Shown here: in pieces, positions 62,450 to 63,502 of the stretch | Layout: every line of letters begins with the position of its first letter | Position numbering within the stretch: the first letter of the stretch is position 1 | Origin: Patescibacteria group bacterium | GTDB lineage: Bacteria; Patescibacteriota; Patescibacteriia; UBA9570 | Length of the DNA: 64,000 nucleotides | Reading direction: 5' to 3' | Assembly: GCA_041660305.1 (NCBI GenBank) | Contig: JBAZWO010000002.1 | Location: 4,739 to 68,738, forward strand | The notes under the pieces: model-generated | What the model was told of the DNA's origin: nothing | Database searches by the model: none | Seen by the model: the letters and a program-made list of their open reading frames with translations, nothing else | Made by a program: the position numbers and the translations under genes

Positions 62450-62597
62450 AATAATTTAATCTTCTATTCTCAATAGCTTACATTAAGAACACAAGAATGC
62501 GGCCAGAGGTGAGATCAACGAAGATCTTACACATGGATGGGCCGCTCATCCTTTCTTTCCTCCAAAAGGGCGTGGTGTCTCCTGAGGAGCGAATTGC

Positions 62598-63305
62598 TTA
62601 CTCGCTGTCCCAGGCGTTTTGCGCCAATAAGGCGCATGCCTCACTGCTGTCCACTATGAATGTTTCGGGCAGCCAGCGGTAGTCATACGAGTCATCTTCA
62701 TACATGTAGAAGGTTCCGCCGTCCTCATAAACGGCCACGGTGGCGAACGCCGTGACCATGTAGTTGGCAGAAGGGTATGTTTTATCGTCAAAACTGAGCT
62801 GCCCAACGTACTCGAGTAGCCACATCCCCTCATCATCGTGGTCATAGAGATTGATCGCGGCCACAAAAACACCAGAAACAGCCTCGGATTCATAGAAATA
62901 GCCCTGGTCGAAAAAGCCAGGATTTTCGTCTGAGTCGGCGAAGTAGAAGTTTGCCCGGAATGACGTTTCCGTCTCTCCCAGCTCATTCGAACCGGCAGGA
63001 ATGCGAACGGCTATCGACACAGAGAAACCCGGGTTCAAACAAAATGCGGTGCTCAATCCCTGTGGGTAGTAGGAGGTTGTTTCGCCCTTCCCACTCTGTG
63101 CAAGTGGGTCGCTTGGAGTAGCAGCCGGAATCGGCGAGCTGTCAGATTCGACACAGTCCGACCCCCCGTTGTATAGGATGGTCCACTCGTCTACGGAGCC
63201 ATCCCGTAGCTCGTCACAGGTCAGGGGACTATCGTCATCCTCCCCGTAAGAGCCACAGGCAGCCAGAATCAGTGCCGCACAACAATAAAACAGACGTTTC
63301 AACAT
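62598..63305 (-). CDS. GC-rich island 3: acidic, aromatic-rich lipoprotein of unknown function
   Basis: The ATG at 63305 is preceded by GAGGAGGG 8 nt upstream. Signal peptide plus lipobox MLKRLFYCCAALILAAC. 235 aa, rich in Asp, Glu, Tyr and Phe. GC-rich relative to the flanks. Confidence 0.65.
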   Translation of the reverse strand: MLKRLFYCCAALILAACGSYGEDDDSPLTCDELRDGSVDEWTILYNGGSDCVESDSSPIPAATPSDPLAQSGKGETTSYYPQGLSTAFCLNPGFSVSIAVRIPAGSNELGETETSFRANFYFADSDENPGFFDQGYFYESEAVSGVFVAAINLYDHDDEGMWLLEYVGQLSFDDKTYPSANYMVTAFATVAVYEDGGTFYMYEDDSYDYRWLPETFIVDSSEACALLAQNAWDSE

Positions 63306-63502
63306 TTTTTTTGCCCTCCTCAGGCAAATGAGAAGCAAGGGGTTGTTTGCGCAACTGGGTGATGTAAGACCCCTCTTCTCTAAAAGTTAAAGAACATTCA
63401 TCTACCCAGGAGGTTGGTAATAACGTAAAATAGGTTATAAACAACCTTATGAGTATAAAGCAAACCAATATACCAGGAAGGATATTATTTGTCTAATCTT
63501 AG

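Follow-up and report, generated by a model that had tools for sequence, protein, structure and literature searches.

A GC-rich islet between rarA and rsmG of a Patescibacteria genome, probably acquired and encoding a predicted orphan lipoprotein

Many bacterial lipoproteins have a lipidated Cys, then a flexible tether of low complexity and then a folded domain. Among the small lipoproteins that act in inhibition or immunity are the lysozyme inhibitors of the MliC/PliC type, the immunity proteins to cell-wall-targeting toxins and the exclusion lipoproteins of the phage T5 Llp type. Orphan genes of foreign composition are classically ascribed to phages and mobile elements. We discuss here a gene that brings these subjects together. 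It lies on a short GC-rich islet between rarA and rsmG in a stretch of 64,000 nucleotides from contig JBAZWO010000002.1 of a Patescibacteria group bacterium (GCA_041660305.1), a tiny-celled bacterium of groundwater; this whole stretch is referred to as the window and all positions are positions in it. Our view is that the locus is probably an islet of one gene, gained by horizontal transfer, and that this gene encodes an accessory lipoprotein of the cell surface. The islet and the parts of it that carry the argument are as follows.

62497..63378, no strand: the compositional islet, ~880 bp with ~53% GC in a genome of ~37% GC, defined by GC profiles and by mapping of its edges at 40 nt.
62598..63305, minus strand: the orphan gene, encoding a prolipoprotein of 235 aa plus stop from an ATG start, defined by the list of open reading frames (ORFs), an open-frame test and the GC content of third codon positions (GC3).
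63314..63321, minus strand: the Shine-Dalgarno (SD) site GAGGAGGG, 8 nt 5' of the ATG, read directly from the DNA.
63322..63378, minus strand: the GC-rich 5' leader, part of the islet, seen in the GC figures and a fine profile.
62497..62597, minus strand: the GC-rich 3' flank of the islet, 53.5% GC, with a short hairpin GGATGGGCCGCTCATCC at 62535-62551.

An earlier reading of the window made from sequence only (the sequence-only reading) had pointed to a GC island between rarA and rsmG, by implication a foreign one, and the sharp step in GC, the GC3 and the codon usage all bear this out. In windows of 200 nt the GC content goes from 0.275 (62300-62499) to 0.50-0.57 (62500-63299) and back to 0.33-0.375 past 63300, and in windows of 40 nt the change is complete within ~20 nt at each of the two edges, ~62497 and ~63378. 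The GC-rich non-coding 3' flank that had been said to accompany the gene is present, and the 5' flank is GC-rich as well, with 49% GC in 63306-63380 and 30% in 63381-63502 beyond it; taken together the islet flanks have 49-53% GC and the adjacent host spacers 26-30%. The hairpin in the 3' flank was found by a terminator scan on the plus strand only, with a T-run after it, and the flank as a whole folds no better than its shuffles (z = -1.2).

Within the gene GC3 is 0.61, as against 0.26-0.37 in nine host genes. With excess GC both at synonymous sites and in non-coding flanks, the anomaly is not a by-product of the amino-acid content of the protein, and indeed for Asp, Glu, Tyr and Phe there are in each case AT-rich codon options that the host uses elsewhere. 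Codon usage, expressed as log relative synonymous codon usage, gives r = -0.06 for the orphan gene with the host genes, and r = 0.41 and 0.45 with the other two GC islands of the window, which are the following.

~32600-34680, minus strand: island 1, with an ORF at 32688-34577/34661, 55-58% GC and GC3 0.66, between gyrB and a transaldolase-like gene.
~38290-39000, minus strand: island 2, with an ORF at 38292-38753, GC3 0.61, encoding a basic, aromatic-rich protein of 153 aa.

Across the three islands, the islet being island 3, the mutual correlations are 0.40-0.45, while those with host genes are -0.32 to -0.06.

The neighbours of the islet are RarA/MgsA (61110-62342, plus strand) and RsmG/GidB (63503 onward, minus strand), both confirmed by Pfam. 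In contigs that reach past the window the genes before rsmG are rplT, an ORF of 67 aa where rpmI would be expected, and then infC and smpB, and the orphan gene is thus at the tail of a co-directional run that converges on rarA. The closest RarA orthologs, 66-73% identical, are from metagenome-assembled genomes (MAGs) of Candidatus Kerfeldbacteria. Comparison of the rarA-rsmG interval, one of the checks that the sequence-only reading had proposed, shows that the islet gene is absent from the slot in two of these relatives, L002 and L003. L002 is the closest relative with the locus (RarA 70-73% identical), and there rarA is followed by a minus-strand gene for a 601-aa protein with signal peptide, then rsmG, rplT and, further on, infC. 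The 601-aa secreted protein is unrelated to the orphan protein and of native composition, and no remnant of it was found in the window. In L003 rarA is accompanied by a rhodanese-like gene and by a gene for a homolog of the 601-aa protein. The contents of the slot thus differ between L002, L003 and the window, from which we take it that the slot is variable and tends to hold exported proteins, and on sequence comparison the occupant in the window appears to be a non-homologous replacement with foreign composition. Orthologs of AT-rich composition in relatives would speak against a foreign origin, and there are none in the databases searched.

These data allow us to consider whether the gene is native but compositionally odd, with its high GC due to a local process or to selection. 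No donor homolog is known, and three islands in 64 kb that are alike in GC3 (0.61-0.66) and codon usage could in principle be due to a cause internal to the genome; however the three encode unrelated proteins, and in relatives the slot is filled by an unrelated gene of native composition. The GC excess of the islet also continues through the leader and the trailer, neither of which is coding, and at either edge it ends within ~20 nt, and the use of AT-rich codons for Asp, Glu, Tyr and Phe elsewhere in the host leaves the protein composition as a poor explanation. We see a native origin as distinctly unlikely.

With a metagenome-assembled source and so abrupt a change in GC one has also to consider an assembly chimera, or contaminant DNA joined into the contig. 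Independent assemblies were used as a proxy for read mapping at the junctions. Four contigs are 100% identical to the window over spans of 1763-2500 bp that include both junctions: JGI contig Ga0172379_10031876, the contig of NCBI MAG GCA_041664685.1, which is the same JGI contig deposited again, ENA MEGAHIT contig ERZ27249449 and the Logan contig of SRR6484324, which is recorded in two samples. They come from different assemblers or pipelines, and the 304-kb contig of the window itself is a further one. On the strength of this identity the islet is not an assembly chimera. Furthermore the insert is exactly one complete gene with its SD site and trailer between intact host genes, and a double chimera would not give that, nor give it three times in 64 kb. 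Another observation in favour of a chimera is that the 5-kb contigs of one sample all end inside rarA, at window 61520 (L001/L083) and 61501 (L082). These ends are ~135-155 nt upstream of the first of two rarA palindromes (61656-61683), and the breaks may come from strain variation or from an assembly problem caused by the palindromes. A chimeric or contaminant origin is hardly credible.

The gene is as the sequence-only reading had it, a single minus-strand ORF running from 63305 to 62598 with an SD site 8 nt before the ATG, the 8 nt between GAGGAGGG (63321 to 63314) and the ATG at 63305 being C and seven A. The ORF is contained in a stop-to-TTG frame of 246 aa. The frame is open over 259 codons, where the remaining five frames of the island hold 8-18 stops, and an open frame of at least 246 codons was found in none of 2000 shuffles of the island. 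The gene calls of JGI, ENA and Logan all give 235 aa. In contrast the NCBI proteins MFA5995321.1 and MFA6388906.1 comprise only the C-terminal 140 aa (window 62598-63020), with a GTG start at codon 96, so that two Cys residues are missing from them along with the lipobox and the whole of the signal peptide.

It could be argued from the NCBI records that the true product is the 140-aa part only, or that what is present is a passenger without function; there would then be no lipoprotein. The GC content by codon position has weak periodicity in codons 1-95 (0.54/0.54/0.58) and clear periodicity in codons 96-235 (0.56/0.39/0.64), and all copies are identical, giving no evidence of selection. However weak periodicity is to be expected in a linker rich in Ser, Pro, Gly, Ala and Asp, and the frame is open for the 95 codons upstream of the GTG, where the other frames have 8-18 stops. 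Upstream of the ATG is a strong SD site with ideal spacing, and after the ATG come a signal and lipobox that are perfect by rule, whereas the short form has the support of one gene caller against three. The SD site, ATG and lipobox, as read from the sequence, favour the 235-aa form, and we regard the short or functionless alternative as very unlikely. The parts of the 235-aa protein are as follows.

63255..63305, minus strand: signal peptide and lipobox (MLKRLFYCCAALILAA followed by Cys17), assigned by a scripted form of the PROSITE PS51257 rule.
63060..63254, minus strand: N-terminal acidic segment rich in Ser, Pro, Gly and Asp, residues 18-82, with Cys30 and Cys51, defined by sequence and low-confidence AlphaFold models.
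62601..63059, minus strand: domain rich in aromatic and acidic residues, residues 83-235, with Cys89 and Cys224 at its ends, defined by composition and low-confidence AlphaFold models.

The textbook lipoprotein signal that had been claimed for the protein stands up to the PS51257 rule, with Cys17 as the predicted lipidation site. In this rule the lipobox pattern is [LVI][ASTVI][GAS]C with the Cys between positions 15 and 35. The N-terminus, MLKRLFYCCAALILAAC followed by GS, has K or R within the first 7 residues (K3 and R4), an uncharged h-region and an L-A-A-C lipobox with the Cys at 17 (LFYCCAALI-L-A-A-C17), and the regular expression of PS51257 matches it. A native AT-rich ORF (39243-40088) likewise conforms to PS51257, and it is thus plausible that the host processes lipoproteins.

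The mature part has 218 aa (~24 kDa). It had been described as very rich in Asp, Glu, Tyr and Phe and as having four further Cys, and residue counts agree: there are 41 Asp+Glu as against 6 Lys+Arg and 1 His, 33 of the 218 residues (15%) are Phe, Tyr or Trp, which is about twice the proportion in the host genes sampled, and beyond the predicted lipidated Cys17 there are Cys at 30, 51, 89 and 224. The computed isoelectric point of ~4.05 is the lower bound of the tool. Self-BLAST found no internal repeats, and no enzyme family or catalytic motif was detected with Pfam, NCBIfam or PDB sequences. Two independent AlphaFold runs, both of low confidence, give no regular secondary structure in residues 18-82 save one short helix, and the same 7-10 beta-strands in residues 83-235. 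On these models the first segment is a probable flexible tether and the domain is probably all-beta. The composition and the all-beta prediction fit a binding module.

The sequence-only reading had recognised no family for the protein, and this holds across cluster, phmmer, profile, PDB, phage and plasmid searches. A word-indexed search of 5.8 billion clusters at 90% found its own cluster only, and an exhaustive phmmer search of 1.84 billion representatives found the protein itself and one spurious repetitive protein. The latter (P0007, 2136 aa, E = 7e-5) was rejected as a repetitive fibre-like protein, in which seven weak and nearly identical matches, each of ~28 bits and 47-74 residues long, add up to the score. 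There was no significant match in Pfam, NCBIfam, PHROGs, PADLOC or PDB sequences, the best in NCBIfam being NigD1/NigD2, whose 9.6 bits (E = 0.72) are well below the cutoff of 60. Searches by tblastn of 50,697 phage records and 72,556 plasmids gave no match, and IMG/VR viral contigs and JGI metagenome contigs gave self-matches only. By these searches the protein is a true orphan, and its mature domain falls outside every described family. In the literature on the lipoprotein pathway in candidate phyla radiation (CPR) bacteria, on GC islands and on Kerfeldbacteria we found nothing specific.

The explanation that we prefer involves two elements of the host DNA on either side of the islet.

63467..63495, minus strand: promoter-like site TAGACA-17-TATATT with TG, in AT-rich host DNA directly downstream of rsmG, a candidate driver of the orphan gene.
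62343..62452, no strand: AT-rich hairpin of host type, consisting of two inverted copies of a ~45-nt module, defined by fold z and 26% GC, outside the islet.

We suggest that ~880 bp of foreign DNA entered the short spacer between the convergent rarA and rsmG genes of a Kerfeldbacteria-like genome, the donor being unsampled and of ~53-57% GC. The insert would have carried a whole gene, together with a ribosome-binding site of its own and with a leader and a trailer that are both GC-rich. Transcription would be by read-through from rsmG or from the AT-rich host promoter-like site, and would stop at the host hairpin that also ends rarA. The prolipoprotein would leave the cytoplasm through Sec, Lgt would acylate it on Cys17 and signal peptidase II would cut it, giving a mature protein of ~24 kDa anchored on the outer face of the cell membrane. 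Its architecture would be a flexible acidic tether of ~65 residues and then a disulfide-braced, probably all-beta domain of ~150 residues in which acidic residues prevail to an extreme degree (net charge about -35) and Tyr, Phe and Trp are abundant. Such a protein may be an accessory surface protein that works through binding and not catalysis, and as its partner one might think of a cationic ligand (protein or peptide), of metal ions, or of something on the surface of a partner cell or phage. The slot that the gene occupies would be one of fast turnover, with a different secreted protein there in relatives. What the data show is the change in composition, an intact gene with its signal and lipobox, the lack of homologs, junctions that recur in other assemblies and a slot whose contents differ in relatives. 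We infer that the origin was horizontal and that the protein is lipidated, has this topology, is expressed and binds a partner, and binding is the least certain of these; a specific binding function is doubtful and at most a tentative proposal.

There are several points that weigh against this explanation. The longest exact direct repeat across the islet junctions is 7 nt (AAGAACA), which was matched or exceeded in 42% of shuffles, and there is no target-site duplication. There is no ORF for an integrase or transposase in 62200-63600 and no tRNA gene at the islet, the sole one in the window being at 39142. With no donor or homolog in the databases it is composition that speaks for transfer. 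Even the nearest relatives that have the locus share no more than ~70% identity in RarA, so that absence of the gene there does not date the event, and as all copies are 100% identical they give no sign of purifying selection and the gene could be a neutral passenger. With regard to expression, promoter-like sites in the region number 2 where 2.3 are expected, which is not above chance, and the site at 63467-63495 is for that reason treated as a candidate; transcription by read-through from rsmG is equally possible. No signature motifs of Lgt or LspA were found in ORFs of at least 100 aa in the 64-kb window, a sample too small to be informative. Finally the single-sequence AlphaFold2 models have a predicted local distance difference test score of 33.8 for the full protein and 37.3 for residues 76-235 and both are unusable, so that the proposal of a binding function comes from composition. 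A Foldseek search of the PDB with the 76-235 model gave nothing at E <= 0.001, with TM scores of 0.42 or less and generic beta-sandwich noise, and assignment of a fold was dropped.

The classical attribution of orphan genes mentioned above makes it reasonable to ask if the islet is the remnant of a phage or other mobile element, or a moron, for instance one for a superinfection-exclusion or immunity-type lipoprotein, the element having been lost or the integration having been of a kind that leaves no repeats. A single-gene cassette with its own SD site is consistent with this, as is the position of island 2 next to tRNA-Asp, a typical site of integration, and a small lipoprotein that neutralises an external partner would suit such roles. 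However the protein has no match in PHROGs, PADLOC, the phage records, the plasmids or the IMG/VR contigs, and the surroundings of island 3 have no integrase, no att-like repeat and no other gene of a phage. Nor does an integron account for the islet, as there is no GTTRRRY core of an attC site at its 3' edge, where the nearest candidate, GTTCTTA, does not fit, and a single gene amid housekeeping genes is not the context of an integron array. An Rfam scan of 62200-63600 gave only sub-threshold look-alikes of miRNA hairpins. We think a phage or mobile-element remnant quite unlikely, and continue to prefer simple acquisition of an islet.

The hairpin at 62343-62452 lies 45 nt from the islet edge and pairs along nearly its whole length, at -36.8 kcal/mol and z = -6.4, a fold that none of 200 shuffles equalled. 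It is 110 nt long without an ORF, and its 14-nt terminal arms are 93% complementary. The terminal 11-mer GAATCACAGAT has 6 occurrences in the window, one of them with a mismatch, where 0.65 would be expected, and the repeat module (TAGAATCACAGATnACACAGATAAAnTACTGATnACAC...) has five copies at three places in the 64 kb, with a mean column identity of 78%. The module is absent from the loci of relatives and from islands 1 and 2. At 19101-19612 an inverted pair of modules brackets a native ORF for a 112-aa PCC-domain protein (PF03479), and this could be a cassette flanked by terminal inverted repeats or just two terminator-like repeats. The neighbours of the bracketed ORF are, on one side, an ORF of 720 aa and, on the other, one that resembles ATP-synthase epsilon and lies upstream of one that resembles ATP-synthase beta, both of these likenesses being read from the translations. 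A single copy of the CACAGAT module is in-frame in pheT (27943-30351, plus strand) at 29111-29168, where it encodes ARITDYTDKYTDYTDKIQIN in the stretch that links two domains, B3_4 (residues 216-389) and B5 (residues 408-472).

The sequence-only reading had placed a hairpin like a miniature inverted-repeat transposable element (MITE) beside the island. In this it was right to the extent that there is a genuine inverted-repeat element nearby and in several copies, and it had claimed no more than that the two are near each other, but the element has the composition of the host and shows no tie to the GC island. One could suppose that the islet is cargo mobilised by the repeat, given the short distance between them and the ability of the module to bracket a gene, as at 19101-19612. 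However the gene bracketed there has native GC, and at the islet the module is on one side only, with both arms at 62343-62452 and none at 63380-63500. The other copies are at 19.1 kb and 29.1 kb, away from the GC islands, neither island 1 nor island 2 has one, and no obvious duplication flanking 62343/62452 was seen by eye. For these reasons, and because the module, with 26% GC, has host composition, mobilisation by the repeat is highly improbable, and the proximity of hairpin and islet is, from the sequence, best read as a coincidence, or as the sharing of a terminator, rather than as a sign that the hairpin brought the islet in. The hairpin probably acts as a bidirectional terminator for the convergent rarA and orphan genes.

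In the case of island 1 the protein has 629-657 aa with a signal peptide and nine metal-binding motifs of the MopE type (PF11617). Its best matches, only 29-43% identical, are in Myxococcota, Bacteroidota, Desulfobacterales, CPR and archaea; for the C-terminal third there are none. Inference of a donor through island 1 failed, as the matches to the MopE repeats are repeat-driven and taxonomically scattered. The island 2 protein is an absolute orphan, with its own cluster only in the 5.8 billion clusters, and a 142-aa variant of it is present in a sister MAG. Island 2 is ~150 nt from tRNA-Asp (39142-39216), the sole tRNA gene in the window. An acidic proteome of the halophile type was considered as a donor signature and was dropped because the island 2 protein is basic (KR 0.176).

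The window also has five perfect GC-rich palindromes of 26-32 nt, two in rarA (61656-61683 and 62235-62264), one in truB (37912-37941) and two that are intergenic (13705-13736 and 35684-35709). Those in rarA each coincide with an in-frame insert of 10 aa (VVGTRYIAFP and SAKGGSAFGG), and these inserts are lacking in three Kerfeldbacteria orthologs, and that in truB encodes SRDALQRVST and is near-identical to the intergenic copy at 13705. From their sequences and positions they look like very short elements that insert in-frame into housekeeping genes, and they are reminiscent of the Rickettsia palindromic elements but only ~30 nt long. There are in addition GC-rich intergenic hairpins like repetitive extragenic palindromic (REP) elements at 60990-61105, in the rlmN-rarA spacer, and at 32500-32545, after gyrB, for example CCCTTTCCCCTAAACAGGGGAAAGGG, CCCCCCTCTCCTATTAGGAGAGGGGG and CTCCTCTCCTCAAAGGAGAGGAGGAG. 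The local rise in GC to 0.525 at 60900-61099 is due to the REP-like hairpins there.

If our explanation is correct the islet is a tidy example of something common, a small acquired islet with a hypothetical surface protein. The gene has no relative among ~15 billion predicted proteins and yet is a well-formed lipoprotein gene of foreign composition, and as such it marks an unsampled donor gene pool. The different secreted proteins in the slot of related Kerfeldbacteria suggest that rarA-X-rsmG is a turnover hotspot for the CPR cell-surface repertoire. For annotation it should be noted that the public NCBI entries shorten the gene to 140 aa and so hide the signal peptide.

CPR bacteria have a biology that depends on contact with other cells. 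A more far-reaching possibility, which is speculative and which we rate as unlikely, is that the three islets are the record of an episymbiotic CPR bacterium capturing genes repeatedly from a single donor, unsampled and of ~55% GC, for example its host or mobile elements of its host, and that the lipoprotein founds a new fold family at the symbiont-host interface. If there were one such hidden donor, the lipoprotein could have a role at that interface, for example in attachment or in neutralising a cationic factor derived from the host. If the donor were the physical host, such islets could link uncultured CPR bacteria to their hosts.

It remains to compare the locus with the systems that it most resembles. 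MITEs and REP-like repeats are relevant to the hairpin beside the islet, which is like them in being 110 nt long, AT-rich, non-coding and multicopy, with terminal inverted repeats, and in that such repeats are often intergenic and right after stop codons. It is unlike them in having no obvious target-site duplication and no identified partner transposase, and in that one copy of the module is in-frame inside pheT. With the inhibitor and immunity lipoproteins the likeness would be an analogy of function only, in that the orphan protein is small, with a predicted lipid anchor, a probable beta-rich binding domain and a single orphan gene that appears to have been acquired horizontally, as those lipoproteins often are, and in that they act by binding a protein outside the cell, as it may do. 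It differs from them in that searches of Pfam, NCBIfam, PADLOC and PHROGs show no similarity, in that neither a cognate toxin gene nor a phage gene is nearby, and in that its models are unusable.

The other two comparisons are closer. Known genomic islets have a sharp break in GC and codon usage, are absent from the syntenic site in relatives and carry a gene for a surface protein as cargo, and in all of this they are like the islet described here. The islet differs in having no mobility gene, tRNA, direct repeat or identifiable donor, and also in being GC-rich DNA in an AT-rich host, whereas foreign DNA is usually AT-rich. With regard to bacterial lipoproteins as substrates of Lgt and LspA, the mature domain of the orphan protein matches no lipoprotein family in Pfam or NCBIfam, but the N-terminal K/R, the hydrophobic core, the L-A-A-C lipobox and Cys17 are all as in known members, and the layout of tether and then domain, as predicted by the models, is also theirs. 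Thus, while neither mobility hallmarks nor a donor were found, the lipoprotein signal, the composition and the synteny are those of described cases, and the locus would be much like an ordinary lipoprotein on an ordinary islet.

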